A DNA stretch of 64,000 nucleotides from Planctomycetota bacterium. GTDB lineage: Bacteria; Planctomycetota; UBA1135; UBA2386. The stretch is from NCBI GenBank assembly GCA_046290465.1, contig JBKAGP010000001.1, forward strand, positions 3,392,001 to 3,456,000, given 5' to 3'. The position numbers and the translations under genes are program-made. The notes under the pieces were generated by a model. It was not told the origin of the DNA. It saw only the letters and a program-made list of their open reading frames with translations, and ran no database searches. This document shows positions 18,791 to 48,499 of the stretch, piece after piece (positions within the stretch are counted from its first letter, which is position 1; each line of letters starts with the position of its first letter).

Positions 18791-18794
18791 GGCG

Positions 18795-18858: not shown

Positions 18859-18900
18859 GGCTTCGCAGCCAGGAGGCTGGGGACTACCGGAGGTCCACCG

Positions 18901-22559: not shown

Positions 22560-22574
22560 CGGGTGTTGCCGGGA

Positions 22575-23000: not shown

Positions 23001-23388
23001 GTTGGACTCCGATTCAAAGCAGAAGAAAGCTCTGATCCCGCGGCGCGAGATCTTCCCGCTGGCACCCTAGACCCGTTGGGTCAGCCGTCAACAATACGTG
23101 TTGGTCGCCGCGCCCGCCAGGGTATCGATACCCGTGCAGGGATGACGCAAGGCGTTTGGCTGCGACCGGTTCGCAAGGATCCGACGCGCCGTGCGAGGGG
23201 CAGCGCGCCTCGAATGGTCGACCATGTCGACCATTTTCTCGCACCGCCCCAGGGACCTTGTGCCGGGGAGCCTCGCTCCTACGCTGACGCTCCGTCGACG
23301 AAGGTTCGGCCAACGCGCCGTGCGCGACCCGCGGTCACCACGACCCGCGAGACGCCGCAGGAAGAAGCCCACCCCAGGATCCCACCCG

Positions 23389-24003: not shown

Positions 24004-24215
24004 GCGCTGCTTCGCCGACCTGCGGGTCGCGGCGGATCCGGTCTGCGAGACCGCACACCTGCTGCTGCCCCCATAGATATTGTCCGACCTGACGAGCACC
24101 GGGGCCTCCTCCTGTCCGGGTAGAACACCACAGGAGTTCTCTTCTACGTATCCTCCCCGCTACGACGGGATCAGCTACGATCCGTCGCGCCCCACCTGCC
24201 GAACGGAGAGCCCCG

Positions 24216-25427: not shown

Positions 25428-25586
25428 CGACGGCGGGCATCGCCCCGCACCACGAACCCGACCGCCCGCATGGGCCGGTGGATACCGATCAGGCCGCCCG
25501 TGAACCGGCGCTGCCAACCGGACGGCTCCAAGCAACCAACATCGCAAGCAACCTGAAGCTGCTCTGGCCAGGGCCCTGACGGTTGC

Positions 25587-25847
25587 TCAGCCCTGCGGGA
25601 ACCGCGGCCCTGGCTCGTGCGCATACTCGATGTCGTCCGCAAGGCTCAGCGAGTCGAGCAGCTCGGACACCGGGCCGGTGGCGTCGAGTTCGACCTCGTA
25701 GAGGGTCGCAAGCTCCTCCTCGGACTCGCCGGGAAACAGCTGCCTTGCACGGCAAGGCTGTCCGCCGAGAAGGGACTCGATCCGGGCCGTCTTCACCTGC
25801 ACGGGCGAGCTCGCGCTGCGGAACTTGACGATGAGCTTGTGTCGCAC
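25587..25847 (-). CDS. small protein resembling a stand-alone subtilase propeptide domain
   Basis: LIVKFR...RQLFP...LYEVEL...L...DIEYAHEP pattern; GTG start estimated. Confidence 0.5.
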   Translation of the reverse strand: MRHKLIVKFRSASSPVQVKTARIESLLGGQPCRARQLFPGESEEELATLYEVELDATGPVSELLDSLSLADDIEYAHEPGPRFPQG

Positions 25848-26258
25848 GGTCGTGGTTTGCGAGTGCGCGCACCAGTCTACCGCATTCGCTGAGGACGGCG
25901 CAGAGCACGGCGCTGCGTGCGTCATGACCCGCCCCACGACCAGGCGACGGAAGGAGCGCTGCCAAGAGCTCGGCAGAACGTTCGTCGCCACCACCGAGCC
26001 GCTCGATCCACACCGTGACGGTGGTTTCGACGGAGGGATCGGGTCGGTGGGGATGGCTTGCGAGCGTGGCGTTTGGCTGGGCGCGGTCGGGGGCACTCGT
26101 CGTGCGGACACCGGGTAGGATCGCGCGGCGGTTCAAGCCTTTGTTCGGACTTGAGTTACGGCTGTCACCGCAGGACGCATCGCCCGCAGCTCCCATCCCA
26201 TGGCGCCGTCTGAATCTATCCGAGGCCTCCGCGTAGGCTCGACGTCTGGGACACGCTC

Positions 26259-26861
26259 ATGCACGACCTCATCGGCGACCTCTACTTCGCTGGCGCTCTC
26301 GCCGCCCTCTACGGGTTCTTCACCCTCATCGGGGGGACAACTCCTAAGGCGCAACTGACCACGCTGCTTCTCCTCGGGTTCGCCTTCCTCGCTGATGCCT
26401 ACTCGTGGCTGGTCGTTCCTGTTCGCGAGACAAGCTCTTCGCTGCTCTGGAAGCTCGACTCTCTCGGCGTCATCGCCTCCTTCATCGCCGCTGCACTCGC
26501 TGCCAACACAACTTGGTCCAAGGCCTTTGGCGCTCTGGTCCTCTCGCTTGAGACCTACCTCATCACCGCGTTCGTCTACTGGTTCTACCTGCCGACTCAA
26601 GACCCGAAGCTCTTCGCATCCGTCATGGAGACCTGGGGCGCGACCTCGCAGGATGACATGGACCTGTACCGACTCCTCGCACTTCTGCTCTTCTCCGTTT
26701 CACCGGTGGTCCTCGCCCTTGGCTACTTCGCAACCAAGGGGTGGCTGCCGTGGGTTCGCACTCGCTGGCCACACCTCTGGACCAAGCGCTGGCACGTGCT
26801 CGCTGTTCTGATTGGCGCTTACTACGTCGCCTACAACGTCACACCGTGGCTCCTTCTCTGA
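26259..26861 (+). CDS. hypothetical polytopic membrane protein
   Basis: About 6 hydrophobic segments; island-type codon usage. Confidence 0.75.
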   Translation: MHDLIGDLYFAGALAALYGFFTLIGGTTPKAQLTTLLLLGFAFLADAYSWLVVPVRETSSSLLWKLDSLGVIASFIAAALAANTTWSKAFGALVLSLETYLITAFVYWFYLPTQDPKLFASVMETWGATSQDDMDLYRLLALLLFSVSPVVLALGYFATKGWLPWVRTRWPHLWTKRWHVLAVLIGAYYVAYNVTPWLLL

Positions 26862-27002
26862 CCCGATGGGGGACCACGGCTTCGGGTCCTCGGTGACGGA
26901 GCCATGCCGCGTCTTCTTGCGTTCCTCCTCGAGTTCGGGCGTCGGTTGCTCACCAGCTCGGGGTGAGTGAGCAACACGAACCCTCAACCGGAGGCAACGA
27001 AG

Positions 27003-27254
27003 ATGACAACAGCACGTCCCATCCACCAAGTTCGCATCGGCCGCATCGTGGCCGCCATCTGGGCGAACGAGACTCCCCTCGGCACGCGCCACAACGTGAC
27101 GCTCAGCAGGCTCTACAAGAGCGGGCCCACCGACGACTGGAAGCGCACCGAGAGCTTCGGCCGCGACGACCTTCCCACCGTCGAAAAGGTCTGCGACCTG
27201 GCTTTCCGCTGGATTCACGACCAGCGCAAGGCGGACGGTGACGGGGCCGCCTGA
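27003..27254 (+). CDS. small conserved planctomycete mobile-element protein, possible ssDNA-binding
   Basis: PIHQVRIGRIVAAIWANET..HNVTLSRLYK..WK.TESFGRDDLP; GGAGG RBS. Confidence 0.75.
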   Translation: MTTARPIHQVRIGRIVAAIWANETPLGTRHNVTLSRLYKSGPTDDWKRTESFGRDDLPTVEKVCDLAFRWIHDQRKADGDGAA

Positions 27255-27316
27255 GCGGCCGTCTTGCCTGCTACCTCACCTCTTCGTGCAGGTAGCTCCT
27301 GAGAGCTAACGAGTGG

Positions 27317-27874
27317 TCACGAAGGAAACGTGAAGCGGTCCGCTCCAAGACCTGCCGCGTTCTTCTGACAGTAGGCAACCCCCTTGTTCGACAAGAACAC
27401 CTGGCCGTTGCCCGGGTCGTGCTCCACGAGACCAGCTTCGAAAAGCTTGGCAACGGCTCGCGTGTAGTCCCTCCAAACCGACGAACGCGGGTCGAGTCCG
27501 AACGTCCACCGACCTTCGGTTGGCTTCTTGAAGTGCTGCTGCTGGTAGTGCCACAGCGTGTTCAGCACGCGGCGTCCCATGTCTCCGAGTTCAACATTCT
27601 CGGGCACGAGCTCTGCGTCGGGCGCAGCTTCCGGCGCACTAGTCGTTCCCTCCCCGAACTCGTACTTGCCCCAGGGTGAGTCCCAGCTTCGAAGACGGCC
27701 AAGAAGAGCGACTACGTGCTTTCGGAACCACCACACGATGACCAACACGACCAAGGGCCATGCCAGAGCTTCGACCAGACGGAGAAAGAACTCCGCACCA
27801 TCGACGGCATCCGTTGCGGTGGCTACCGCTTCGGTCTTCGACGCAACAACGTCCGGCTGGGCCTTCTCCTGCAT
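27317..27874 (-). CDS. hypothetical protein with one TM helix
   Basis: LAWPLVVLVIVWWFR helix then a soluble domain with possible wHTH. Confidence 0.7.
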   Translation of the reverse strand: MQEKAQPDVVASKTEAVATATDAVDGAEFFLRLVEALAWPLVVLVIVWWFRKHVVALLGRLRSWDSPWGKYEFGEGTTSAPEAAPDAELVPENVELGDMGRRVLNTLWHYQQQHFKKPTEGRWTFGLDPRSSVWRDYTRAVAKLFEAGLVEHDPGNGQVFLSNKGVAYCQKNAAGLGADRFTFPS

Positions 27875-28018
27875 GAAGGCACACTCTCTCGTGGCAAGGG
27901 GAGGTGAGGCAACGGCGACGCGGAGAAACAGAGAGAAGCAGCCGCGTGGTAGGCGCAGACAAAGCCCGCGCTCGTTGAGTAACCCGGTCCCCCCCACTCG
28001 CCGTTCCCGGGCTTGACC

Positions 28019-28046
28019 ACGCTTGATAAAATGGGTTATCGTCAGT
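28019..28046. other. dif-like 11-6-11 recombination site
   Basis: ACGCTTGATAA-AATGGG-TTATCGTCAGT with GATAA/TTATC dyad just upstream of a tyrosine recombinase. Confidence 0.55.
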
Positions 28047-28121
28047 AGTCATGAGCCAGATTCGGGTGGGGGACTCGGCCAACTCCTGTCTCCTGAACAG
28101 CTTGGAGCGGCACTCCTGACT

Positions 28122-29324
28122 ATGAACCGAAGCGTCGATGCGACTCGTGACCCCGGGCTCCCGGACCCCTCCTCGGGTCCGGCGCCGGTCGGCGAGCTCG
28201 TCTCGGCTGGCGATGGGATGCCCGCGGTGCTCCTCGGGCATGCGACGCCTCAGGTCGCGGCCAAGGTTGAGAGCTTCTGCAGGTCCGTCGCCTCGATGCT
28301 CGAGGCTTGGATTCAGCGCAGCCAGAACCCGAACACCCAGCGCACGTACCGCCGTGCCGTGATGGACTTCATCGAGTTCTTGGGCATCGACTGGCCTGAG
28401 AACTCGCACGAGCTGCTCTCCGCATCGGTCCCGGACGTCCGGGCCTGGCGGGACACGCTCGCGGCTGCAGGCAAGGCTCCCGCGACCCTGAACGCCAGGC
28501 TCTCGGCACTCTCCGGGTTCTACCGCTTCATGCGGGAGGTCTCGGTCACCGAGATGAAGCTACCCATCCAGGTCCCGAACCCGGCGCACGCCCAGTTCAT
28601 CGGCCGCGAGAGCCCCGAGCCGGTCTCCCCAACGTCCGCCCTCACCCTCTCGAAGGCGAAGCGACTCCTGGCGCTTCCTTCACGCGACCACATCCTGCGA
28701 GCCGACGAGTTCCTCGCCAAGCGCTTCAAGAACAACCCCGCAGCGCTCGAGCACGAACTCGACGTCTTGGTTGCTCGCGACCGGGCTGTCTTGGCGGTCT
28801 TTCTCTACACCGGGTCGCGCATCGGCTCGGTCTGCGCGCTCCACGTCGCGGACTTCCACGACGACGAGGACGACCCCACCATCAGCTTCCGCGAGAAGGG
28901 ACGGTCGCGTTCGAAGCGCCGCATCGGCGTCAACTTCGTGTGTGCCGAGGCGCTTCGCGACTACCTCGAGCGTTCAGGTCTCACGAAAGGGCCTCTCTTC
29001 CGGGCGCGAACGAACCCCCGCAGTGCGAAGCTGAGCTCGCGCCAGGTGAGCCAAGCCACGATGTACGGCTTGCTTCTCTCCTACCTCGAGCGCGTGCCGG
29101 GGGCGATGGCTGAGGAAGAGCTCGAAGATGGGTCGAGCCGGAAGCGGTGTCGCTACTCCCCCCACTCGCTACGCGCGACCACGGCGACGCTACTCGACGA
29201 GGCCGGGGTGCCCATCAAGCGCATCCAGGAGTTGCTCGGGCACAAGGACATCCGCGTCACCCAGGCCTACATTAAGCTACTGCGCGACACCAAGAAGAGT
29301 GCGTCGCACGACGTGCCACTCTGA
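28122..29324 (+). CDS. tyrosine recombinase (XerC/D-like, with SAM-like core-binding domain)
   Basis: NTQRTY, APATLNARLSALSGFY, TGSR, EKG, HSLR, LGH, TQAY. Confidence 0.92.
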   Translation: MNRSVDATRDPGLPDPSSGPAPVGELVSAGDGMPAVLLGHATPQVAAKVESFCRSVASMLEAWIQRSQNPNTQRTYRRAVMDFIEFLGIDWPENSHELLSASVPDVRAWRDTLAAAGKAPATLNARLSALSGFYRFMREVSVTEMKLPIQVPNPAHAQFIGRESPEPVSPTSALTLSKAKRLLALPSRDHILRADEFLAKRFKNNPAALEHELDVLVARDRAVLAVFLYTGSRIGSVCALHVADFHDDEDDPTISFREKGRSRSKRRIGVNFVCAEALRDYLERSGLTKGPLFRARTNPRSAKLSSRQVSQATMYGLLLSYLERVPGAMAEEELEDGSSRKRCRYSPHSLRATTATLLDEAGVPIKRIQELLGHKDIRVTQAYIKLLRDTKKSASHDVPL

Positions 29325-29484
29325 ACGCACGCCCATGACGTAGAATCTCCGAAGAAGTTGAGCCGGGCATGGCGACGACGCGCTGCGCGTCTCTGCGGCG
29401 AGTCTCGTGGACCGCGACCACTCCGGCTACGACGTCACGCTCGAGAACGTCGCGCTCGTCCTATTCTGACACACATCCGCATCC

Positions 29485-30234
29485 GTGCCCCTGCCACTAT
29501 CTGTCCCACTCTGCTACGGAAGCTCCTACCCTGACCTCAGCGACATCAAGTTCGGTGGGTCGTGCTTCGAGTTCGTCGGCCACAGCGACGGACGCGGATG
29601 GTTTGCAACTTGCCGACACGTTGTCGACGATTGCCCCGAAGGTCACTCGCCATTCATCTGCGACGCACTGGAGACGACTAACAGAGACCCGAAGTTCTAC
29701 CCCATCCTCGAGGTCCGGCCTCACCCCAAAGTCGACTTCGCCGCGCTGCACATCGACTTCTCGGACTCGGACCACCGTTGGAATCCAGAGTGGCGCTGGT
29801 TCGGCCCCGCTCCAGACGACGGACTCCTCGACGACGTCTCAGCGGCGGGATGGGTCATCGAGACTTGCGGTAGCGGAACACACTTGCTGAGCCGCAGGTT
29901 GAAGGGCTACGTCACGAGGACCATCGCAACCCCCGACTATATCCCTGGAGCGGGCGACGCTTGCTTGGAGGTCTCTTTTCCTTCGGTCGTTGGGTTCAGT
30001 GGAGCCGCCCTTGTGGCACCAGACCACAACTCCTCGACACCACCGCCAGAGAGAGTCGTCGGCATGATGTTTCAGAACCATCGGTCCAGAGTCGACGAAT
30101 CACTCGAACACGAGTTCACCGACGGGAGAGGCATGACCGAGCGAGAGCGCATCGCGAGCATTGTCAACTTCGGACTCGCCCATCCGGTGTCCGTAATCCT
30201 CTCCTGCCTCAATGACCTTGGGCTCGGCCGATGA
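29485..30234 (+). CDS. trypsin-like serine protease, no signal peptide
   Basis: ATCRHVV (His), VDFAAL (Asp), GFSGAAL (Ser). Confidence 0.72.
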   Translation: MPLPLSVPLCYGSSYPDLSDIKFGGSCFEFVGHSDGRGWFATCRHVVDDCPEGHSPFICDALETTNRDPKFYPILEVRPHPKVDFAALHIDFSDSDHRWNPEWRWFGPAPDDGLLDDVSAAGWVIETCGSGTHLLSRRLKGYVTRTIATPDYIPGAGDACLEVSFPSVVGFSGAALVAPDHNSSTPPPERVVGMMFQNHRSRVDESLEHEFTDGRGMTERERIASIVNFGLAHPVSVILSCLNDLGLGR

Positions 30235-30346
30235 CCGTGTCGGCACAGGAGCATGACCTCGTCTCACGAATAAGAGGAGCGAGCGTCGGTGGTCGAAGAG
30301 TGTCGACGGTGGCACGAGTGCCATCCCCCACCTAAGGCAGGCCACT

Positions 30347-30973
30347 ATGAATATGGACTTTGAACCCGACACTTACACTGACCCGATGTTTTGCCGGCAC
30401 TGTCAGGCCGAGACCCCTATGTATCGGGCCGCCAGTTTCGTGCAGACGGTCGAGGACGTCAGTCCCATCACCGTTACCGAACGCTGGGTCGCGTTGAGCT
30501 GTCCGAAGTGCTCGGGCATTTCTCTTCAAAGGAGGGTCACCGACAACGTTCCTTGTGAGGACATGGATGTACCGGTTTGCACGGTTGTATACCCAGCAGA
30601 GGTTCGACCCCCGGTAGGCCTACCCTCAAGTATCCAAGATGCTTTCGTGGAAGCCGCAAGAGCGGCTAGCTTTAGCACCTCTCTCTCCGGCGTTGGCTTT
30701 CGCCGAGTCCTCGAGATGGTGTGCCGCGACAAGAAGGTCCAGACCCCGAAGCTCGCAACGGGCATCAACCAGCTTGTAGAGTCCGAGGACCTCAAGTCGC
30801 GATTAGCTCAGCTTGCTCATGAAGTGAGAGCGCTAGGCAACCGCGGTGCGCACGAGTGGGAGAGGCTGTCGAAGGCAGAGGTCCGCAGCGCTGAGGCCCT
30901 GTGCCGCGCCGTTCTCGAGGTCGTCTACAGCGCTCCGCATCTCATCACGCAGGTAACAAGGCACGATACGTGA
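30347..30973 (+). CDS. DUF4145 (HEPN-like) protein with N-terminal Zn ribbon
   Basis: CRHC/CPKC; LP..IQDAF.EA; RRVLE; RALGNRGAH. Confidence 0.85.
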   Translation: MNMDFEPDTYTDPMFCRHCQAETPMYRAASFVQTVEDVSPITVTERWVALSCPKCSGISLQRRVTDNVPCEDMDVPVCTVVYPAEVRPPVGLPSSIQDAFVEAARAASFSTSLSGVGFRRVLEMVCRDKKVQTPKLATGINQLVESEDLKSRLAQLAHEVRALGNRGAHEWERLSKAEVRSAEALCRAVLEVVYSAPHLITQVTRHDT

Positions 30974-30978
30974 GCGCG

Positions 30979-32697
30979 TCAGTGCTCCCTGCGGAGTTCC
31001 TGTAGCTTCTTCCAGTCCGCCTCCAAGCCCGCGAGCGTTGGTCGGACATTCAGCGTCTCGAGAGGCTGCTTGTGCGAGTCCAGATACCGACAGCAGTCGT
31101 CGAAGATATCGCATACCCCATCACGCGTCTCTGCCAAGGATTGGATATTGATGTCGCGAAGGTTCCCGACCATCACGTTCGGGCGGTAGCTCTGGACGAC
31201 CGACTTCAACACCTTCTGCTCAACGACGATTTCGCAAGCGCCGCGAAGCGCCTCGTATCCCTTCTCCACGAACATCGTCTGCATCTCGGCATCGGACTCG
31301 ACCTTCGCGCGCTCGATGAGACGGTTCACGCGCTTCCTTCTGTCGTCCCAGGTGTCTAGCTTTGGGCTGCCCCCTAGCTGTACCTTACCACGCTTCTCGC
31401 CAGCCTCGGTGATATCGAAGTATGAGCACGCACTCTTATTCTTGTCGAAGTGCTCAAGGAGCAGCATCGTGAACCACACGTTGTGCGTGAACACGATGAC
31501 CTGACGGCCCTTGCTCAAATCGACGAGCCGCTCGGCGACATATCTCATGCGTCGGTAGTCGAGGCTCGTGACCGGGTCGTCGAAGACCATGGGCGAGGCG
31601 CTCCTCCGAAGCGTCGCCTCGGCAAGGAAGTCTGCAAGCGCAATCACCTTCTGCTCGCCCTCCGAGAGAATGGCTCGGAGCCCGACCTGCGGTGCCAGAC
31701 TCTTAGTTCTCGCTGGAGCCCCTCCTTCCCCCGCGAAGTTCAGGTTCACAGATGGTGCCTTGAGAGCTTTGCACTCGTCACCAAACGTCGCCTCGAAGTC
31801 CTGATAGATGAGCCGCTTGCTCGCTGCCTTTGCCTCTTCGGTCAGCGACTTCAGTATTCCCGTCATCGTGCGTCCCAGAGTCGTTGCTCGAGACGCCCAC
31901 TTCGAGTTCTCGACGTGCTCCCGCACTCCCGGAAGCAGCTCTGCGAGGACCATCCGGTCGCTCAACTCGCGCAGCTCCTTTTCGGCGTCCGCCAGAAGCT
32001 CCTTCCTCTTCGTGACCGCCTCTCCGAGGTCCTTCTCCGTTGACTCGAGCCCGCTACTTCGCTCCGTCACGGCCACCTTCAGTTCAGCGACACGTTGTCT
32101 CGGTACTTCCTCGGGGTCGCTCCGCTTCTTCACTGCACCCACCACCTTCTCGAGGTGTGGGAGCAACGCGAGACCGTCTCGAATCGTCCGGTGGGCGTCT
32201 TCTGCGTTCTCGACCTTCACCCTCATCTCGTTCGAGATGCTCTCCAGGTCCAACTCCTCGAGACCGCTCGCAGAAGCGCTGACAGCTCTTGTGGCTGTCG
32301 ACAGCGCAGCTTGATGCGAGCCAAGCAGAAACTCCCGGTACTTCCGCAGCAACTCCACTGCCGCTTCCTCGAGCGGCTGGAGGCAGTACGCGCATGGTTC
32401 TCCTTCCTGCGGGTAGTCGCCTGGCATCTCTGCTGCGACGTAGGCTTGCGCGGCTTCCACGAACGCCTTCCATGTCTCACTCTGGAAGCCGGGAATCGGG
32501 AACGATGCGAGGCCCTCCTTGGTTGCCGTCGTGAGTGCTTCGCGCGCCTTGTCCATGTCTACAAGCTGCTCGCGAAACTTGGCTTCGTCGAAGGCGGCGA
32601 ATGCGTCGAGGACGGCGCTGAGTCGACCAAGCAGAGCCATCTCACTCCGTACGACTTGCAGCCGGGCATCCGAACGCCCCGCACGAAGCGCACCCAC
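30979..32697 (-). pseudogene. C-terminal part of SMC/Rad50-like ABC ATPase (AAA_13/RloC-like); N-terminal Walker A missing
   Basis: Zn-hook CAYC, LSEGEQK signature, FDDPVTSLD Walker B/D-loop, IVFTHN; in-frame stops just upstream. Confidence 0.75.
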
Positions 32698-33181
32698 CCG
32701 GTCTTCAAGTGCGGTCTTCTTCTCTCACGGCCTGAAGGACTCTCACCTCCAGGTCTGTCTCGGTCGTCCCGCATCCACGGGACCCGTGAGGTTATGGGAT
32801 AGAATGAACGGATTGGACGTTGGTGTGTTGGTAATGCTCGGGTGGAGGACGACGTGTCCCCCGGAACCATCCCCGAGAGCGCGTAGACCTCCTTGTTCTG
32901 TAGAACCAACCGAAACAACACGACCAAACGGTTTACTCGTTCAAGCCTCCCTCGCTCTGAGCAAGCGCCTCTCGACGCACTCAGCGCTACGAGCAAGCAG
33001 CAATGGCAGGTGGTGAGCCTGCCCCCTTAGCCTGGAAGCGTTCCAGGTTTACCGGGCGCTACTTCGCCAATTCGAGGCGACGCCAGACCGTGTTTCAGGC
33101 TCTGACGACCAAGTCTCTGCTATCCACAGAGACTCAGGCCGAGATTAGCACGCTGTTTCATCTTGAGCAAAACGGCGGCTG

Positions 33182-33919
33182 TTAGCCGAGCATACTGAGT
33201 AGCTTCGAGACAAGCCCACCGAGCACCGCGGAAAGCACAAGGTGCCACCACTGAAGGCGTGTCCCCGCCTCGCTCTGGCGCGTGCTCTGGCGTCTTCCTC
33301 GGAACGCGTCTCTGGCTGCGGAGTCGCGAACCTCGCGCACTTCCTTGCGAAGTTCAACGACCTGGCCGGTCTGCTCGACAACGACATCAGTGAGCTTCTC
33401 GAAGCGCTCATCTTGGTCTTCGTCTCGCGTTCGAACCGGAGGCATGACGAGCGCTGACGGCAGCGGTCTGAAGTAGGAAGGCTCTGCTCGCAGCGCATCG
33501 GTCGCCTTCCGAAGTCGGTCAAGGCCCGAAAGCTCGGGAAACACTGCTCGCGCGGAAGCAAGAGCCTCCATCCTCGCCTTCGCCTCCTGCGCCTGCTCGA
33601 GAATGCCCGCGCACATCGCAGTTGGTCCATCCGAAAGAGCATTCGCGACGCTGAGGGCAGGGCTGCTCGCGAGCGCACTTGCGGCTCGAGAGACCTCCGC
33701 CAACCGAAGGGGCTCGAGAGCACGCTGAGCGGCTGCGACCGAATCCAAGGTGCTCGACAACGCCCTCGACGGCCTGAGCAACCGCTCCATGGTCTGCCGC
33801 TCCCTCTCGATTCGCCGCAGAGTTTCAGACTGAACTCGCCTTCTTTCCTCCCGCTGCTCTTCTGTCAGCGAGCGCTCGTACTCTTCGCACCGCTTCGCGA
33901 TGTGGCTGAAGTCGACCAT
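33182..33919 (-). CDS. hypothetical coiled-coil protein with C-terminal TM helix
   Basis: Charged helical body; tail WWHLVLSAVLGGLVSKLL; 6-bp gap after the yjzC-like gene. Confidence 0.7.
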   Translation of the reverse strand: MVDFSHIAKRCEEYERSLTEEQREERRRVQSETLRRIERERQTMERLLRPSRALSSTLDSVAAAQRALEPLRLAEVSRAASALASSPALSVANALSDGPTAMCAGILEQAQEAKARMEALASARAVFPELSGLDRLRKATDALRAEPSYFRPLPSALVMPPVRTRDEDQDERFEKLTDVVVEQTGQVVELRKEVREVRDSAARDAFRGRRQSTRQSEAGTRLQWWHLVLSAVLGGLVSKLLSMLG

Positions 33920-33925
33920 CGCGCT

Positions 33926-34108
33926 TCAGCCTTGGCCCGACTTGTTCTTGGTTCGGTCCACGAGCGTGTAGGTGGCCTTGGGAGTGGTCGTTGGGGGAAG
34001 TGGCTCCCCCTTCACGACCGTCACTTCACGGCGCTTCCCGCCGCGTGGTCCGACTTCTTGGTACTGCCCTGAGTTTGGGGCCTTTTGACCTGGCTTCATC
34101 TTCGACAT
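33926..34108 (-). CDS. YjzC family small protein
   Basis: KPGQKAPNSGQY.EVGPRGG..EVT..KGEPLPPT; AGGAAGGA RBS. Confidence 0.85.
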   Translation of the reverse strand: MSKMKPGQKAPNSGQYQEVGPRGGKRREVTVVKGEPLPPTTTPKATYTLVDRTKNKSGQG

Positions 34109-34121
34109 CTCGAATTCCTTC

Positions 34122-36356
34122 CTAGGAGCGGGTTCTGACCGGGATTTTCACGACCGGCTGAAGCGGTCGAATCTGGGTTGGAAACGCGCGGACCACCTGG
34201 TCGTACAGGTCCTTCGCGTTCTTGCACGTGACGGAAATGATGAGCGCGTAGCGCACCTTGTCCGCCCTGTTCGTCGCCGCACTCTGTTCGCGGGCGTTGT
34301 AGTGAATGTCGAAGGTGGGCTCGAACAGCGAGCTACCTCGCTTGTTCTTGGACCTGTGAAGCGTCGTCTCCCACTTGTGGGCGTCGTGACGCAGCTCCTT
34401 CTCCGTTGAGAACTCCTTGAGCTGGAAGAAGGAGTCAGTGACAGGGTTGGTCGGGTCTTCGGACTTCGCTGAGAACTTCTCGGAGTGGGGTCGGAAGACG
34501 ATGCCAACGCCTGCCCTCGTGTAGCTCCCTGGGTGGTTTGAGTCGACTTTGGTTGCGTAGCAGAGGGTCGCAGTGATGCTGACCATCCCTGGAAGCTGCT
34601 CCGATGGAAGCGGCACTCTTGCGCGGAGGAACTGCCCCGCTGTTAGCTCGCCCTGATAGACGATTCGGGCTGTGCCATCGGGACAGACCACGAAGTCTTC
34701 CAGGTCGTTCGGGACACGTCCCCAGCCAGCCTCGTGCCGCTCCCCACCACCTTGCGAGCAGTGAACCAAGAGCGCCTTGATGGCGAGTGGGCCGAGCAAA
34801 GAACCGAAATGGGCTCGCAAGCCAGTGGCGAGACGGAGCGTTGCCGGAGACGCGAAGCTGGTTCCGGCTTCTGGTCGGACCTGCGGCTCTGGCTCTTCGT
34901 CGTCCAGGACCCAAAATGGCTCCCGCTCCGAGCCACCGAACGCAAGCAGGTCGGGCTTGACGACGCCTGGGCTTCGCCCCGGACCAACGGAGCTGTACAC
35001 GGCACGCCTCCACCCGTCCCCGCTGACGTCAGCTGAGCCGACCGACAGAGCGTTCACCGAGTCGGCTGGGACTTGGATGCGGTTGTAGTCAAGCGCTCGG
35101 TCACCACCGTTGCCGACGGCAACGGCGGCAAGAGTGTCGCCTTCACTAAGGAGCTCGTCGATGACAGCGGTCCAACCGTGGACGTCGTCATCCTCGATGG
35201 GCTCATCAGGCCCGATGCTGAAGTTCGCGAACGCGTACTGCTTGCCACTCAGCACCGTCTCGATTCGCCGGAGGACGTCGTACATGTCTACGTCCGGAAG
35301 CCCGTCTTGCTTCCCTGACTCCGCATCGAGGACGCGGTAGTGGTCAACTCGGGCGTACGGCCGCTCAGGGGGACGCCCGCTTGTGAGTGGCCCGAAGAGC
35401 AAGGCGGACGTGACGGCTGCTCCGTGGCGCAGGTAGACATCAACTGGCTCCCCAACGCTCGCGCCCTCGAGGCTCGTCACCCAGGTTTCGAGGTTTGAGC
35501 CCGAGCCGACTCCCCCATCGAAGACTGCTACGCGAAGACCTGGGTCAACCGCACCCTCGGTTGGGAGCTCAACTCGAAACGCCTTTGGCGCAGCCCAAGA
35601 CCGGACCACCGGCTGCAGCACCCTGATTCGAGGCATGGAGCGCGCCACACGCAGAAACGAAAAGCGCGCAAGCTCCTCGAGGCGTGAGGCGTCTGCTCGC
35701 ACCGGCAGGAAGCAAAGCCCGCTGGCTCGAAACACGCGCCGAAGGTCGGCTTCTGCGCCGAGCGAGTCCGCGTAGCGAGCGAAGCTGCGAAGGACATCAC
35801 CCGTCGATGCGTGAAGAGCCACCTCGAGGAGCGGCCGCTGCTCATATCCTGTGATTCCCTTCAACTTGGCATGCGCTGGAAACGAGGCCACCGACTCCAA
35901 CTTGGTCAGGTCTGCGGCACCCTTTCGGTCGTCGGCCCACCCACTGAGCTCCGTCGACCAGGCTCGGAACGCGTCGCGCGGACCAGCGACGAACAGCTCG
36001 GTTGAGGGTTCGGCGCCTTCGCGCACCTTCTTGCGAGTGGTCTTTTCCGGCTTGACCGAAACGGGACGACTCCCAACCGCCGTCAGCTCGAGTTCCTGCA
36101 AGAGCACACCAGGGAAGTAGCTCTTCGCCAGAAACTCAGGGTGGAGCGTTAGGACAGCTACCGCTTCGTCGTTTGGGCAAGCCTCATCGGGAATGGAGTC
36201 CAACTCTTCAACCGCCTTGGCCACCATCGGGACAAGTCGGGAGCGCGCCGCCGAGACGGTATACGGGTCCGTCTTGTTCATCTCGCGCTTCGGCGGCGGT
36301 ACAGGCTCCGTGAGCCGCTCACCGAAACCGAGAAGGAACTTCGGGTCATCCGCCAT
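34122..36356 (-). CDS. ietS: S8 subtilase, IetS-like
   Basis: VAVFDGG (Asp), RHGAAV (His), VGN, GPGRSPGVVKPDL, GTSFASP (Ser); no signal peptide; 3-bp gap after the ATPase gene. Confidence 0.82.
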   Translation of the reverse strand: MADDPKFLLGFGERLTEPVPPPKREMNKTDPYTVSAARSRLVPMVAKAVEELDSIPDEACPNDEAVAVLTLHPEFLAKSYFPGVLLQELELTAVGSRPVSVKPEKTTRKKVREGAEPSTELFVAGPRDAFRAWSTELSGWADDRKGAADLTKLESVASFPAHAKLKGITGYEQRPLLEVALHASTGDVLRSFARYADSLGAEADLRRVFRASGLCFLPVRADASRLEELARFSFLRVARSMPRIRVLQPVVRSWAAPKAFRVELPTEGAVDPGLRVAVFDGGVGSGSNLETWVTSLEGASVGEPVDVYLRHGAAVTSALLFGPLTSGRPPERPYARVDHYRVLDAESGKQDGLPDVDMYDVLRRIETVLSGKQYAFANFSIGPDEPIEDDDVHGWTAVIDELLSEGDTLAAVAVGNGGDRALDYNRIQVPADSVNALSVGSADVSGDGWRRAVYSSVGPGRSPGVVKPDLLAFGGSEREPFWVLDDEEPEPQVRPEAGTSFASPATLRLATGLRAHFGSLLGPLAIKALLVHCSQGGGERHEAGWGRVPNDLEDFVVCPDGTARIVYQGELTAGQFLRARVPLPSEQLPGMVSITATLCYATKVDSNHPGSYTRAGVGIVFRPHSEKFSAKSEDPTNPVTDSFFQLKEFSTEKELRHDAHKWETTLHRSKNKRGSSLFEPTFDIHYNAREQSAATNRADKVRYALIISVTCKNAKDLYDQVVRAFPTQIRPLQPVVKIPVRTRS

Positions 36357-36359
36357 GGG

Positions 36360-37478
36360 TTACTCCGCCTCCTCCTGAGCCATCTTTCGGATGGTGTCTC
36401 GGCTGATTCCCGTCAGCTCGTACGCGCGACGTTGGGACAGCGCACCGCTTGAGACGAGGTCTTTAGCGACCGCCGCTCGGTCGTCCCACTCCATCTCGCC
36501 AAGCCGTGAACGAAGCAGCCGCTCGAACGGCTCCTCTGGAGAGCCGCCCAACACGGCCGACCTGCGGGCCCGAAGAACGTCACGGTGGATGTCGCTGAAC
36601 GACATGCCTCGAAGCGCGACCGCGAGCACGCCAGCCCAGTGAGCCGAGCCCCCACTCGACGCCTCGTCCAGGAACCGCCTTACGGCAGCATCCACTGCCT
36701 GCTCGTCTGGCAACGGAAACTCCACCACCATCTCGAACCGCCGCCAGATGGCTGGGTCGAGGAGGTTCGGATGGTTGGTCGCCGCGACGAGAAGCCCGTT
36801 CGGCGGCCAGTCGTCCACCTCCTGAAGAAGGACTGTGACGAGGCGTTTCAACTCTCCGACCTCCGAGTCGTCGTCCCTACGCTTGGCGATGGCGTCCAGC
36901 TCGTCCAGGAGGAGCACACACTCCATGCCCTTGGCGTAGTCGAGAACGAACCGAAGGTTGTTTCCGGTCCTTCCAAGGAAACTGCTCATGACCGCCGAGA
37001 GGTCCAGCGTTAGCAGAGGAAGTCCAAGCTCCCGGGCGAGCCAACGGGCCCCAAGGGTCTTGCCGACCCCCGGAGGGCCTGTGAACAGCGCACTCTTGCT
37101 CGGACTGAGCCCTTCCCGCTCCAGGGCCTCACGCGCTTCACGCTCCGCAACGAGTTGCCTGAGCGAAGCCTCGACGCTCGGCGGATAGACCGGCTCGACA
37201 TCGAGCGCTACGGACGCCTCCACGCGAACCAGCTGCTGTCGGGAGTCTAGGTCGACCGGGACTTCGCTAACTGCGGCCTTTCGAAGCGGCGAAGAGCGCG
37301 TTGGCACTTCTCGAAGAAGCTGGAGAAGCTGCTCGGAAAGACCGGGCATCTCCTCCTTGAGCTTCTTGGCCATGCGACGAACGTGCAGCTGCACGTCCTG
37401 TGGACGAGCAGTGAGCGCCAGCTGCGCGAGATGGCCTACCAGAGCTTCGAGTTTCTTGGCGTCGTCCACGTCGGTCAC
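36360..37478 (-). CDS. ietA: AAA+ ATPase, IetA-like
   Basis: GPPGVGKT, SSFLGRTGNN, LLLDELDAIAKRRDD..EVGELKR, ATNHPNLLDPAIWRRF. Confidence 0.85.
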   Translation of the reverse strand: MTDVDDAKKLEALVGHLAQLALTARPQDVQLHVRRMAKKLKEEMPGLSEQLLQLLREVPTRSSPLRKAAVSEVPVDLDSRQQLVRVEASVALDVEPVYPPSVEASLRQLVAEREAREALEREGLSPSKSALFTGPPGVGKTLGARWLARELGLPLLTLDLSAVMSSFLGRTGNNLRFVLDYAKGMECVLLLDELDAIAKRRDDDSEVGELKRLVTVLLQEVDDWPPNGLLVAATNHPNLLDPAIWRRFEMVVEFPLPDEQAVDAAVRRFLDEASSGGSAHWAGVLAVALRGMSFSDIHRDVLRARRSAVLGGSPEEPFERLLRSRLGEMEWDDRAAVAKDLVSSGALSQRRAYELTGISRDTIRKMAQEEAE

Positions 37479-37731
37479 AAGGGTCCTCCAGAGCTCCTCC
37501 CAGACTACATCGGCGTGGACGACCTGTCAAGCCGCCACAAGCCGTCTCGTCCACCTGGCCCCAGAGCACCCCTGAACGACATCCAAGGCCCTGCCGCGGC
37601 AGACGAACGTGAGGGCACCCAGCACTACTGCGCCCACCGCCTCGCCCGAGCGTCGCCACCCCGACTCCGGGGCGGGTCATCCAAGGAGTGAAACGACATC
37701 CCTACCCCCATAGGGCCGAGCAGATGGGTAA

Positions 37732-37979
37732 TTATCCACAGCCCAAGGCCCCGTTTAGATGTGTTTACACAGCTTAGATAAGTTTAGGCGCTGCAAGCCC
37801 TTGGCATCACAAGCGAATCGGGGGATTCGGTGGCGTGATAGACGCGTCCGGGTGGCGTGATAGACGCGGAGCGGTGGTGCGATAGACGCGCCCGGGTGGT
37901 GCGATAGACGCGCACGCGACCGAAGTTATCCACAGGCACGTGCCGCCACAGGGCCTTGAGCGGTGGCGCGATAGACGCG
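37732..37979. other. iteron-type replication origin
   Basis: DnaA boxes TTATCCACA at 37732 and 37926; AT-richer tract ~37754-37787; five 18-bp iterons. Confidence 0.88.
37829..37979 (+). repeat. iterons GGTGGYGYGATAGACGCG x5
   Basis: Copies start at 37829, 37851, 37873, 37895 (22-bp period) and 37962. Confidence 0.95.
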
Positions 37980-39069
<1,090 letters not shown>

Positions 39070-39119
39070 GCGCTTTCCCCTATTGACGCTTTCAAATCGG
39101 CCGTGAGAGATTGCACTCA

Positions 39120-39851
39120 ATGAATGCATCATACTCACCTCTCACAATATCGGTTATTGCTCGTAAAGGCGGTGTTGGCAAGAGTATGTGCACCACGCTG
39201 TTCGCCCGCGCGTACGCCAACTCGGGTCTCCGAGTTCTTGTTGTCGACCTTGCCCCTCAGGCAACGACTACGAAGGCACTTCTCACCCGAGAGCAGGTCA
39301 GAGAGCTGGACATCGAGGAATCCTCAAGCGCCTTCGCGGCGGGTGAGAGTCTGCTCCCCTACCTCACCAAGTCGCCCCAGCGCGGACTGCGTGTTGCACC
39401 GTCTGGTGAGCCGCTTGAGCTCGCGAGCGATAGGCTTCGACTCGACGCTCTCGCACTTTCGAACGTGCAGGAGTCGCTCTCGACTCTCGCTGACGCGCAG
39501 GCGGACCTGGTCATCATCGACACTCCGCCGGACTACGGCACCTTGACGCTTGGCGCTCTTTCGTTCGCTCGCTGGGCTGTGGTTGTGAGCGAGTGTAAGC
39601 GCGAGAGCGTGCAGGAGGTGCCTCAAGCACTCAAGACGATTGCCAGGCTGAAATCGCTCAACCCGTCGCTTTCGCTTCTTGGCATTGTGGCGAACAAGCT
39701 TGACCGCCGACGAAGCGAAGTCAACAAGGCCATGAAGCCTGTGCCGAGCGTTGACTTCAGAGCTCATGGTCTCCCCGCAGTGGTCGAGGTCGCCGAAGAG
39801 CTCCTTCGGCGCCACTCAGCAGCTACTCGGAAAATGGCGCACGCTGGATAG
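39120..39851 (+). CDS. parA: ParA family partition ATPase
   Basis: KGGVGKS deviant Walker A, VVDLAPQA, VIIDTPP, GIVANK. Confidence 0.9.
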   Translation: MNASYSPLTISVIARKGGVGKSMCTTLFARAYANSGLRVLVVDLAPQATTTKALLTREQVRELDIEESSSAFAAGESLLPYLTKSPQRGLRVAPSGEPLELASDRLRLDALALSNVQESLSTLADAQADLVIIDTPPDYGTLTLGALSFARWAVVVSECKRESVQEVPQALKTIARLKSLNPSLSLLGIVANKLDRRRSEVNKAMKPVPSVDFRAHGLPAVVEVAEELLRRHSAATRKMAHAG

Positions 39852-39987
39852 AGCCAAGGCTTGTGACTCACCCAGCTGGGGAGCCTCATGCGTTGACTTC
39901 ATTCTAGTCATTGCAGTCATTGCCCTCTCGCTATTCAACCTAGGCAGGGAGGTCATCGACTGCATTGCATTCAGAGGAGGAAAATCT

Positions 39988-40401
39988 ATGGCTGAGCCAA
40001 AGCGAAGAATCAGGACACAAGTCGACGAGTCTACACTGAGCGACCTGCGAGCGAGCTTGGCGGGTGTTGGTGCTCCGAGCAGGCCGGAAGAGGGCGAGCC
40101 ACGAGACGCCGCTGAGACTGCCGTTCTTGAGCCCCCCTCCCGAGAGTACTCGTTCAGTTCGAATCGTCGCCCTACGCGGCGCACAGCGCCCCAGAGCGCC
40201 AAGCGCACGTCAGTCTCAGTCTCGGTTGGAACACACGAGCTTGCCAAACGGCTCACTCGCGCCCGGATGCTCGCTCTCGCGGAGGAGCAGACCGTTGGAA
40301 GCACATACCTCGAGGGCCTGAGGCTGCTCGAAGAGCGACTCCTCGAGGAGGGCATCGAGATTCCGGAGAGCAGCACGCGACTCAAGCCCGGCCCGCGCTG
40401 A
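39988..40401 (+). CDS. putative centromere-binding partner of ParA
   Basis: Strong AGGAGG RBS; disordered N-terminus, then KRTSVSVS + helices (RHH-like); follows parA. Confidence 0.6.
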   Translation: MAEPKRRIRTQVDESTLSDLRASLAGVGAPSRPEEGEPRDAAETAVLEPPSREYSFSSNRRPTRRTAPQSAKRTSVSVSVGTHELAKRLTRARMLALAEEQTVGSTYLEGLRLLEERLLEEGIEIPESSTRLKPGPR

Positions 40402-40477
40402 AACGCCTACATTGACTGCAATGCCTTGGTTGCATGCAGCCTAGGCAACCCAGTCAACCCAGGCATCGACTGGCGCA

Positions 40478-41653
40478 TCACCCCGTCTCTCGCGCAACGC
40501 GCGCAGCCAGCTCTCGGTCACGCTCCGCGTAGACCTGAGTCACGTCGGCACTGGCATGACCCAGCGCGACCTGTGCAGCTTCCAGTCCAAAACGCCGCCT
40601 GACCTCCGTAGCTCTGGAATGCCGGAGTTGGTTGGGAGACCAGCGCTCGACTCCAGCCCGGTCGCATGCGCGGTGGATGGCGCGGCGGTAAGAGTGAGTC
40701 GAGTAGCAGGGCTCAACGGCGCTGGTTGCACGTGGCCAGGGAGGGGCGCTCGCGTCAGCGCCTTCGCGACGCTCTCTCAGAGCGTCCCCTGGTGAGAACA
40801 GGAGCGCGTCCGGGTGCCTTGCGAGCCGAGGCTGCAAGATGGCCTGAGCTCTTGGGCCGAGCAACCGTTCACAGGAGAGACCGTGGTGCTCGGTCTTGTG
40901 GCGCTCGGGTCGGTAGACCCAGATGTCTTCGGTTCGGTCGATGTCTCGAGCGGTGATGGAGCACACTTCGCCGGGTCGCATGCCGGTCAGCCACTGAAGC
41001 TCGACCATCGCAGCCACGACGTTGCTCAGAAAGGGGAGGGTGGCTCGCATGACACTCTCTGGGACTGGCTGGACCTTGGCGTTTTCGGCGACCTGCGAGG
41101 ACTCTCCTCTTCTGAGGCCGGGCACGGAAGCGAGTGCCTGCCAGACGGAGCCCGAAACGAGCTCCATCGATGCACCCCAGCGAAACACGCGAACGACACG
41201 ACGCACCCGACCGTTGACGGTGGTTCGCGAGAGGGACCTGCCGTTTACACGCGAGCGCTCGACCATGAGCGTTCGAAAGGCCTGCAGGCGCCTAGGTCCG
41301 AACTCCTCGGCGCGAAGCGAACCGAAGCCCTCGCTCAGTGGACGAAGCGAATCGCGAATCCACCCGCGCTCAGAGGTCTCCTGGCCGCGCTTCATGTAGC
41401 GCCCCTCGGTCTCGAGGTAGGTCCAGTAGGCGGCGACGAGTTCGTCCACCGTTGGGCCCCGAGCCCCGTCGTCCATCTGGCCGCGCTCGGCCCCGATGGT
41501 GAGGTGGTCGGCGATGAGCGCCGAGTAGCGCTCCCGACTCTCCTCGGTGCCGTGCTTTCCGAGGTAGATGTCCTTGCCGTTCAGACGAACGACGGCGTTG
41601 CCGGATGGCTTGTGAAGACGGTAGCTCGGGACGAGCGAACGCTTGCGAGGCAT
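40478..41653 (-). CDS. site-specific tyrosine integrase
   Basis: PSYRLHKPSG..VRLNGKDIYLG arm-binding-like N-terminus; TGMRPGE, HKT, PNQLRH, LGH, TQVY; beside tRNA 3' end. Confidence 0.93.
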   Translation of the reverse strand: MPRKRSLVPSYRLHKPSGNAVVRLNGKDIYLGKHGTEESRERYSALIADHLTIGAERGQMDDGARGPTVDELVAAYWTYLETEGRYMKRGQETSERGWIRDSLRPLSEGFGSLRAEEFGPRRLQAFRTLMVERSRVNGRSLSRTTVNGRVRRVVRVFRWGASMELVSGSVWQALASVPGLRRGESSQVAENAKVQPVPESVMRATLPFLSNVVAAMVELQWLTGMRPGEVCSITARDIDRTEDIWVYRPERHKTEHHGLSCERLLGPRAQAILQPRLARHPDALLFSPGDALRERREGADASAPPWPRATSAVEPCYSTHSYRRAIHRACDRAGVERWSPNQLRHSRATEVRRRFGLEAAQVALGHASADVTQVYAERDRELAARVARETG

Positions 41654-41761
41654 GAGCAGCTCACGGGTTAAGTGGTAAATTACCACCGTTCCCGGCTGCT
41701 CTGCCGCGGGGGCAGGTGCACGCAGGTCTACGCAACCTGCATCTTCAGCCGTAGTTATGAA

Positions 41762-41838
41762 TGGTCGGAGCGAGAGGATTTGAACCTCCGACCCCCTGCA
41801 CCCCATGCAGGTGCGCTACCAGGCTGCGCCACGCTCCG
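41762..41838 (-). tRNA. tRNA-Pro(GGG)
   Basis: CGGAGCG acceptor stem, anticodon arm CCTGC-ATGGGGT-GCAGG, T-loop GGTTCAAATCC, encoded CCA; 77 nt. Confidence 0.97.
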
Positions 41839-41915
41839 ATTCGGTCGTCGATCTCGAGGCCACCAGGGCCCCAGGGAACGGAGCATGCTAGCGGCAGCAC
41901 CGGAATCGGCAAGCG

Positions 41916-42170
41916 CTAACCCGCCCCAGCGCCACTCCCGCCATCCCCACCTCCACGACGACCACCACCACCCCCACGCCCCGAAGCCCCCATCCCCCGA
42001 CACCGGTTCCACACCACCCCCATCCCCAGCTGCATCCCACCGAGAAACGTCATCGTCGACAGCCCCTTCACCCCGCAGTCCGCCCCGACCATCCCGACCA
42101 CCCCCATCGCGATCCCGGCCCACACCTGCACCCCGCGAAACAGCCCCCACGTCGTCACTCGTTCGTCCAT
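41916..42170 (-). CDS. possible small membrane protein with Gly-rich tail
   Basis: GGGAGG RBS and two hydrophobic stretches, but low complexity and atypical codons. Confidence 0.3.
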   Translation of the reverse strand: MDERVTTWGLFRGVQVWAGIAMGVVGMVGADCGVKGLSTMTFLGGMQLGMGVVWNRCRGMGASGRGGGGGRRGGGDGGSGAGAG

Positions 42171-46154: not shown

Positions 46155-46176
46155 GCCGGCATCGTAGACTGCGGCG

Positions 46177-47463: not shown

Positions 47464-47562
47464 CGAGAATCTGCGCACCGGCGGTCGATTCGCGCCCGCG
47501 CCGATCGTCGCGACGACGTAACCTGACCCGACTCGCCACACCCTCATCTCAAGGAGAACGAC

Positions 47563-48351: not shown

Positions 48352-48416
48352 GTCCGACGAACGGCGCGGGCTGGGTTTCGCATGCCGGCTACCAGAAGGC
48401 CGGCGCGCACACGCAA

Positions 48417-48483: not shown

Positions 48484-48499
48484 ATTCGGGGCCCGGTTG

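Follow-up and report, generated by a model that had tools for sequence, protein, structure and literature searches.

Whether a replicon lodged beside a transfer RNA (tRNA) gene in a bacterial chromosome can still live as a plasmid, or has been captured for good, is the question raised by a 64,000-nucleotide (nt) stretch of a planctomycete genome. The stretch, called the window throughout with positions counted from its first letter, is G000:C1:3,392,001-3,456,000; its source genome, G000, is a single contig of 6.59 Mb with a guanine and cytosine (GC) content of 70.2%. The phylum agrees with a flanking oligopeptidase B, whose nearest named homologues (85, 78, 74, 73 and 69% identity) carry Planctomycetes or Planctomycetota labels; PF07596, a planctomycete hallmark, had 0 matches in G000, but it gave none in the controls either and so carries no weight. 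G-codes denote the genomes and L-codes the RepA loci with which it was compared. Beside tRNA-Pro(GGG), the window holds an island of ~12-16 kb that carries a plasmid-type maintenance module and a tyrosine integrase. The original prediction, made from the letters alone, had read 25430..41838 as one element and left two options, an integrative element that can also replicate as a circle or a captured plasmid in decay. Here, we favour decay over the circle because repA is out of frame, no distal attachment (att) site was found, one cargo gene is truncated and no circular junction appears in read-level contigs. Most likely the island is an integrative element of plasmid origin that has become a fixed, passively copied part of the chromosome, a reading that we hold with reasonable confidence.

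The right end of the island is defined by two features:

41762..41838, minus strand: tRNA-Pro(GGG) (ARAGORN; Rfam tRNA, 58.8 bits), the sole tRNA in the window
40478..41653, minus strand: tyrosine integrase, 391 amino acids (aa) from the likely ATG at 41653 (PF00589, 1.3e-14; phrog_1 integrase, 1.8e-26)

As in other tRNA islands, the tyrosine integrase adjoins the 3' end of an intact tRNA gene. That 3' end faces the island and hence marks the right boundary, and homology to relatives ends within ~9 nt of it. The gap between integrase and tRNA is 108 nt, and the open frame of the integrase continues to 41806, into the tRNA. Aligned to XerA (5hxy), the integrase keeps the arginine of MRPGE, LRH, LGHAS and the tyrosine in QVYAE. 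In the GC check proposed with the original prediction, 1-kb windows have 0.58-0.66 over 26001-42000 and 0.67-0.76 elsewhere, a drop of ~0.08-0.1. The island is present once in G000.

The replicon itself consists of an initiator gene, an origin and a partition module:

38227..39138, minus strand: longest repA open reading frame (ORF) (PF10134, 8e-66, 222 bits against a cut-off of 27, profile positions 1-228 of 228)
38313..39138, minus strand: N-terminal part of repA with the RPA domain, aligned with residues 1-254 of 8/8 homologues, homologue residue 1 corresponding to the ATG at 39069
38277..38312: (GA)18 microsatellite, separating the two repA parts and shifting the C-terminal part into another frame
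37980..38276, minus strand: C-terminal part of repA, ~98 codons plus stop, aligned with homologue residues ~256-348 at 39-55% identity
37732..37979: origin of replication (oriV), with iterons, two DnaA boxes and A/T-rich repeats, its parts in the same order as in relatives
37962-37979: single iteron, 18 bp, with the iteron core GGTGGYGYGATAGACGCG
37926-37934: DnaA box TTATCCACA, perfect
37829-37912: four tandem 22-bp iterons, cores starting at 37829, 37851, 37873 and 37895
~37745-37810: A/T-rich TAAAC-type repeats, between the DnaA boxes
37732-37740: second DnaA box TTATCCACA, perfect, 194 bp from the other box
39111..39851, plus strand: ParA Walker-type partition ATPase (AAA_31, 3e-22; CbiA; NCBIfam ParA_partition), divergent from repA
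39988..40401, plus strand: small candidate ParB-like partner, 137 aa, conserved directly downstream of parA in L021, L022, L033 and L023 at 27-34% identity
39900..40465: candidate centromere or operator repeats CATTGCAGTCA and their complement, on both sides of the partner gene

The plasmid-type replicon with partition genes beside an integrase and a tRNA, which the original prediction had proposed, is supported; the initiator gene is, as assembled, the part that is broken. In the whole-genome search repA scored 223 bits with PF10134, and repA is out of frame as assembled, which weakens the case for a replicon that is still autonomous. Translated searches (tblastn) with eight close homologues placed, in 8/8 cases, residues 1-254 on 39069->38314 and residues ~256-348 in another frame, on 38276->37995 (E to 1e-22 for the latter). 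All eight are single frames; close homologues measure 346-360 aa, and their alignments take in just 83-84% of the 303-aa window ORF. Read on the coding strand, the tract and its surroundings give ...LLDYE-L(SL)n and then ETRNGEVHLKAKR..., where homologues read YELRLQENRGE, and the second-frame stop lies at 37980-37982, abutting the single iteron. By arithmetic, an in-frame repA needs a unit number equal to 1 modulo 3, that is, 16 or 19. Traced from the match start, the repA frame was open for 346-369 codons in 16/17 related loci; at the seventeenth, L024, it broke after 5 codons from the tracing start used. The window copy lacks this single uninterrupted frame of ~346-369 aa, which includes a C-terminal domain of ~95 aa. 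The hint that repA needed repair was correct, and the lesion is the frameshift at (GA)18, 38277-38312.

The origin, in turn, has the features of an iteron replicon, with tandem repeats adjoining the initiator gene and DnaA boxes and an A/T-rich region laid out as in relatives. The iteron core GGTGGYGYGATAGACGCG has 5 matches against 0.05 expected (0/100 shuffles reached 5) and the DnaA box TTATCCACA has 2 matches against 0.02 expected (0/100 shuffles reached 2). Alignment of the window origin with those of five relatives gave an identical order of parts, with an iteron core close to that of L021/L022. The layout in relatives is a DnaA box, four 22/23-bp iterons, TAAAC repeats and a DnaA box ~200 bp away. 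In general, Tandem Repeats Finder reported three to four 22/23-bp repeats downstream of repA (12/17 loci), and a perfect DnaA box was present in 11/17 loci, often as two boxes ~200 bp apart with TAAAC-type 10-11-bp repeats between them.

For the partition module, the deviant Walker A motif KGGVGKS can be read directly in ParA. The small partner has no family match in Pfam and no ParB_N domain, and its AlphaFold2 monomer (5-row alignment) is one long helix with a predicted local distance difference test score (pLDDT) of 59. The 11-mer CATTGCAGTCA has 3 matches at <=1 mismatch against 0.57 expected, all within ~520 bp, and the candidate centromere region 39900..40465 also holds the inverted repeats I1 and I3. 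As a separate observation on the two divergent genes, repA and parA, taken at their longest frames, meet head to head and share 24-28 nt on opposite strands (39111-39138 in the window and L048:6559-6582), and in L048-L050 the N-terminal extensions of RepA (residues 1-23) and of ParA are both conserved. The divergent promoters of repA and parA may hence sit inside each other's coding regions.

The RepA-oriV-ParA backbone is recurrent in the chromosomes of other Planctomycetota and of Cyanobacteria. Searches using a RepA alignment yielded 21 loci in species-representative genomes and 17 in metagenomes. The RepA clade is common to both phyla (54-61% identity); the closest RepA proteins are 70% identical, some of them labelled Planctomycetes replication initiator. 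Eight loci lie on contigs of >100 kb (L021, 2.4 Mb; L023; L029, 6.1 Mb; L030; L032; L033, 2.3 Mb; L037; L047, 411 kb), and the contig of L037 is a 5.2-Mb chromosome. A tRNA (Val-CAC or Gly-TCC) lies within the locus in 5/14 and 1/8 loci scanned. L021, L022 and L052 share the order parA<- ->repA-oriV-<-int-<-tRNA-Val, their integrase and that of the window being 33-37% identical, and L023 has parA, repA and a related integrase near repA. Since the L022 record and L052 seem to be two assemblies of one locus, the integrase homologue accompanies the RepA clade in three distinct loci, the fourth being a near-duplicate record. The presence of these homologues at tRNAs in three other loci argues that integrase and replicon belong together. 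Among known plasmids, tblastn of RepA against PLSDB matched 1090 records, all at <60% identity, so the window RepA is not close to any plasmid-borne RepA there; the 30 matches listed were at 41-45% identity, 29 from Proteobacteria and one from an uncultured bacterium. Elsewhere in the phylum, G184:C1, a complete single-contig planctomycete genome, carries three full-length chromosomal RPA genes (353-398-aa frames), which means that multiple integrated replicons of the RPA family can coexist in one chromosome.

Within the genus, the replicon is foreign as judged by these comparisons. PF10134 was found in 14/401 sampled genomes of the phylum, G000 included, and in 0/14 other genomes of the genus (71-94% complete). 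The right flank (45,000-64,000) is syntenic beside tRNA-Pro in 10/12 loci fetched from relatives, and none of the 12 tRNA-Pro loci holds rep, par, IetAS or other island genes. The outcome that the original prediction had named as telling against itself, syntenic core genes in relatives, did not arise. Four congeneric loci (G003:C54, G017:C8, G009:C9 and G002:C242) carry a full tRNA-Pro(GGG) whose 3' half is repeated, as a 46-52-nt copy, at a distance of 1.5-10 kb. Moreover, integrases 31-35% identical to that of the window sit at tRNA-Pro in three congeners, the integrases differing between genomes. Judging by these copies, the genus has a hot spot of integration at tRNA-Pro(GGG).

No corresponding repeat was found at the far side of the window island. 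A 32-nt probe of the tRNA 3' part with <=3 mismatches and 11-mer seeds gave no distal att, blastn-short over 3,370,000-3,433,700 (63.7 kb; the window plus 22 kb upstream) gave none above chance, and local alignment peaked at 28, with 27 as the highest score among 30 shuffled probes. The searches used seeds of 9-11 nt, and shorter integrase cores would merge with chance. The site with the score of 28, 6588-6611, was rejected as a distal att because both its sides are syntenic in G007. Excision is hence without an obvious substrate, and in its present form the island most likely can neither initiate its own replication nor excise by att x att recombination.

The left end is less sharp than the original prediction had drawn it at 25430. 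No direct repeat marks it, GC slides gradually from ~0.70 to 0.62 between 25,300 and 26,200, and a defined left end was not confirmed. The region from ~9 kb to tRNA-Pro is variable within the genus, and only its right 12-16 kb are compositionally foreign. A search of 20 relatives did not find the left-flank gene 24216..25427, and at the DNA level nothing in 14 congeners matched window positions 15,100-25,450. What follows tRNA-Pro in G013 are the counterparts of genes at G000 3.375-3.387 Mb, left of the window, whereas G007 has the equivalent of window ~7,850-9,000 at a distance of 8.3 kb from its tRNA. The proposed comparison with the empty site therefore gave half an answer: the right flank is conserved without island genes, but the left flank is not conserved and no clean empty site was obtained.

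Read-level support was taken from Logan contigs of two runs from one study, one of which may be the source of the genome. One contig is unbroken from 3.4 kb left of 24,000 through 31,521, which shows that the left junction is not an assembly join. Two others span 31,492-38,267 and 38,324-41,790, stopping at the microsatellite, where the break is 38268-38323, and inside the tRNA. Hence, of the concern that the island might be a chimeric assembly, the left junction is cleared by a continuous contig, but the tRNA junction is bridged by no single one. Logan contigs over the region show no joints and no circular junction, although contigs cannot exclude the latter. Word depth is 147-153 for the island-only contigs, 138 for the contig from the left flank to 31521 and 116 for the right flank, values that are uninformative on copy number.

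Beyond the replicon and the integrase, the island and the segment to its left hold the following:

36360..37478, minus strand: IetA-like AAA ATPase (PADLOC IetA, 2e-82, profile 9-371 of 374)
34122..36356, minus strand: IetS-like S8 peptidase (PADLOC IetS, 4e-40, profile 37-731 of 749; Peptidase_S8)
33182..33919, minus strand: glutamate/arginine-rich ORF of 245 aa with a hydrophobic C-terminus, no family in Pfam, PADLOC, NCBIfam or PHROGs
32726..33100, minus strand: structured non-coding element, 375 nt, with a fold like group II intron domains V-VI (nhmmer profile; covariation)
30979..32724, minus strand: PDC-S06-like/AAA_13 ATPase remnant (PADLOC profile positions 318-848 of 851 only)
30347..30973, plus strand: DUF4145 protein (PF13643, 1.8e-15; PD-T7-4, 1e-7; phrog_1305)
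29485..30234, plus strand: weak trypsin-like peptidase ORF (Trypsin_2, 1e-4, under the cut-off; GC at third codon positions (GC3) 0.72)
28023..29324, plus strand: second tyrosine recombinase, XerC/D-like (PF00589 and PF02899; GC3 0.83, host-like)
25489..28048: left segment of small ORFs, no families except a weak DUF3040 match, membership in the element uncertain

All parts that the original prediction had listed (integrase, parA and partner, repA, iterons with DnaA boxes, second recombinase and defence-like cargo) are therefore present close to where it had placed them. Its statement that no conjugation or phage structural genes could be recognised also held, in that Pfam, PHROGs, NCBIfam and PADLOC named none in the ORFs scanned. 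Among ORFs scanned across 5.8-44.9 kb (Pfam, PHROGs, NCBIfam), there was no family match to a relaxase, a coupling protein or a type IV secretion system. No phage structural, capsid, tail, terminase or lysis gene was found, and PHROGs on 16 ORFs gave only integrase families and one DNA-binding family.

The adjacent ATPase and S8 peptidase genes match the IetAS anti-phage system over full profiles, but their NCBIfam scores fall under the equivalog cut-offs (IteA, 241 bits against 510; IteS, 102 bits against 900). The pair may be described as distant relatives of IetAS and as putative defence cargo. The PDC-S06-like ATPase is the truncated cargo gene: the first ~208 residues are missing, and the Walker A motif with them. 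A homologue in G019 (>=795 aa) aligns to it only from its residue 209, and none of the missing part was found upstream in any frame. The gene is cut exactly at the end of the structured element (32724/32726), which suggests a rearrangement junction rather than point decay.

The structured element recurs with the RepA clade, being found with nhmmer at 11/21 genome and 4/17 metagenome RepA loci, for example at L029:15650-15835 and L033:8251-8605, with a conserved length of ~190-375 nt. A second copy in the source genome, G000:C1:2,967,060-2,967,404, lies ~25 kb from the only TrwC and TraG-like genes of that genome. In 15 aligned copies, 20/25 predicted pairs covary with both sides changing, and reading frames shift between aligned pieces, so the element is not coding. 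Its likeness to group II intron domains V-VI (RF00029) consists of two stems that covary and four cyanobacterial copies at 43.6-48.8 bits, above the gathering score of 40; the window copy, with an insertion in domain VI, has no Rfam hit. Unlike in group II introns, no reverse transcriptase was found anywhere in G000 or among the ORFs scanned in L029 and L048, and L033 and L029 leave too little upstream room for domains I-IV. The ~90 nt past the intron-like 3' end are also conserved. In the cyanobacterial locus L029, the element and the RepA backbone sit among RadC, DUF6876 and a TrwC relaxase. Three identities seem possible for the element: an intron fragment left as an orphan, an RNA that has been domesticated, or DNA belonging to a conjugative leading region.

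The leftmost ~4 kb appear to have a different history. The second recombinase is 86% identical at the amino-acid level to a gene in G001:C250, with more pieces at G001 contig ends (C162, C103 and C245). These relatives suggest a multi-copy recombinase-borne element in G001, of which the gene itself alone would be shared with the window. Its GC3 (0.83) is set apart from that of rep/par (0.65-0.66) and IetAS (0.73-0.74). For the ORF 27317..27997, a structure search gave unnamed clusters and winged-helix-like leads, with template modelling (TM) scores of <0.5. Because of the host-like GC3 and the 86%-identical multi-copy relative, 25.4-29.4 kb is treated as probably a separate insertion. The claim that 25430..41838 is one element probably fails for these left 4 kb.

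These differences raise the rival explanation that survives best, namely a patchwork at the tRNA-Pro hot spot: the integrase beside the tRNA, the replicon, the defence genes and the second recombinase would be unrelated insertions that came in one by one, and rep/par would be a piece of some larger element, mobilisable or conjugative. Partial tRNA copies and differing integrases at tRNA-Pro in congeners are what such a patchwork would leave, as is the uneven GC3. The rep-par block of the window is moreover inverted relative to int-tRNA as compared with L021/L022, the L029 backbone keeps company with a relaxase, and the TrwC and TraG-like genes of G000 lie, at 2.94 Mb, close to the second structured-element copy. 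However, integrase homologues travel with the RepA clade beside tRNAs in the three other distinct loci, and the defence genes are enclosed by two backbone parts, the structured element at 32.7 kb and the integrase at 41.6 kb, which implies that at least 32,726-41,760 behaves as one unit. We consider the patchwork unlikely.

In the reading of a fixed, plasmid-derived element, the ancestor would have been an iteron-controlled theta plasmid, in which RepA bound the 22-bp iterons and host DnaA the two boxes, and the A/T-rich repeats melted. Segregation would have relied on ParA and its small partner acting at the CATTGCAGTCA repeats. The plasmid would then have entered the 3' end of the tRNA by means of its own integrase, bringing the IetAS-like defence genes with it, and loss of an in-frame RepA and of the far att would have locked it in place. 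The left ~4 kb, with the second recombinase and the small ORFs, would probably have arrived as a separate insertion at the same hot spot.

Several points weigh against this reading. The integrase motifs, ParA, the partner gene, the full-profile IetA and IetS and all origin parts look intact, which would be surprising after long decay and suits an element that is recent or still works. That damage is confined to repA and one cargo gene suggests that the event was recent or that selection still acts on the remaining genes. The read-level contigs break at (GA)18, so that the frameshift rests on the assembled length, and an error of one unit in it would mean an unbroken repA. Since slippage should be frequent in a repeat of 18 units, an in-frame repA may be present in some of the population. 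The integrase may use a short att core that 9-11-nt seeds miss. Window ~9,000-25,400 is without a counterpart beside tRNA-Pro in relatives, so the left boundary cannot be set by an empty site, and at the tRNA-side junction no single contig has >=31 letters on both sides.

A second alternative is a working integrative plasmid in which (GA)18 is a contingency switch and a gain of one unit or a loss of two restores RepA in a minority of cells. In those cells RepA would start replication from oriV, either within the chromosome or once the element has excised, and ParA and its partner would segregate the circle; in most cells the element would be silent. The position of the tract is suggestive, as it coincides with the variable linker that joins the RPA domain to the C-terminal domain (homologues YEL-RLQENRGE, window YEL-(SL)n-ETRNGE), and there is no visible damage to oriV, parA, the partner gene or the integrase. 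The tract is also exceptional, being the sole dinucleotide repeat of >8 units in the 6.59 Mb of G000, where 12 runs have >=7 units and the next longest has 8. No such repeat occurs in 38 related loci scanned, and there are no GA/CT runs of >=6 units in the 17 metagenome RepA loci (L047-L063), which makes the repeat a derived feature of the window copy. Nevertheless, the Logan contigs show neither circular junction nor joints, the missing distal att leaves no obvious excision substrate, and a microsatellite growing in a gene already freed from selection would look identical. A full-text literature search found no precedent for a repeat-switched plasmid initiator in the published text that it covered. 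We regard a working, switched plasmid as quite unlikely, and the narrower claim that (GA)18 is a slipped-strand on/off switch for the initiator, a form of bet-hedging between chromosomal and plasmid life, as very doubtful.

Dinucleotide runs are error-prone in some long-read consensus sequences. That the frameshift is an assembly or consensus error in repeat length, with repA intact in an ordinary complete integrated replicon, agrees with a genome that is one 6.59-Mb contig from a metagenome, with short-read-type Logan contigs that cannot size the tract and with the intact rest of the replicon, but only one length in three is in frame and the contig stops at 38267 and 38324 fit a real repeat longer than the assembler's word (its length is not given by them), and we find this explanation very improbable.

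The integrated element favoured here belongs to a recurrent, little-described clade, carries candidate defence genes and sits at a tRNA hot spot, and the kind of island is one already described, as RPA integrated plasmids. According to a 2024 preprint (bioRxiv 10.1101/2024.01.22.576637), RPA initiators occur in 13/21 planctomycetal plasmids, close to iterons and to genes of type I partition, and integrated plasmids are the origin proposed for five RPA homologues in chromosomes. The island shares with these plasmids RPA next to tandem iterons, a type I ATPase, the frequent tyrosine recombinase and chromosomal copies. It differs in that the preprint describes a clade of Planctomycetes only, whereas the clade of the window RepA includes Cyanobacteria. 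The tRNA and integrase context, the full origin layout and the microsatellite frameshift come in addition here, and the partner is small and without ParB_N. The assertion that replicons of Planctomycetota are poorly characterised is, on the evidence of that preprint, partly outdated; the point that the locus is a lead for genetic tools stands, given that planctomycete model strains are described as lacking a replicative plasmid in PMC11958385.

Two further comparisons concern the way of life of the island. AG repeats in a Mycoplasma Type III mod gene reportedly form a simple-sequence-repeat contingency locus (PMC3498834). With such loci the window shares a long dinucleotide run in a coding region that sets the frame; the known cases are surface proteins and restriction-modification genes of host-adapted bacteria, whereas here the gene is a plasmid initiator and length variation is hypothetical.

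Integration into the 3' end of a tRNA by an integrase, combined with own replication and partition, is also the life of pKLC102/PAPI-1 in Pseudomonas and of pSAM2 in an actinomycete, which have conjugation genes and flanking att repeats. The island is much smaller than these and has an RPA/iteron replicon, and neither conjugation genes nor a pair of att repeats was found.

For practical use, the locus offers a compact replicon for a possible planctomycete vector, consisting of repA, an origin of ~250 bp and a two-gene partition module, with intact relatives in L021, L022, L047 and L048. The spread of the RepA clade across Planctomycetota and Cyanobacteria, with one origin layout and often in chromosomes, at times beside tRNA genes, points to a family of small integrative plasmids with defence genes. 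Should the microsatellite be a switch, it would represent a novel means by which a mobile element governs when it replicates; otherwise, the island is an ordinary plasmid capture at a tRNA hot spot.

Outside the island, further observations can be added. The only TrwC relaxase of G000 (897-aa open frame) and an adjacent TraG-D_C coupling-protein match lie at G000:C1:2,938,283-2,942,756; no VirB4 (PF03135) match was found. From their family matches, the pair could be part of an integrative and conjugative or an integrative and mobilisable element, which in principle could mobilise other elements. The high-GC 5.8-25.4 kb of the window encodes ordinary functions, namely a Na/H exchanger, an FMN dehydrogenase, and MauE-like and CarboxypepD_reg proteins. 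Within that part, a sequence of ~88 bp at window ~10826-10915 has >20 other copies in G000 at 94-99% identity, sometimes in tandem, with the look of a miniature inverted-repeat transposable element or a repetitive extragenic palindromic sequence.

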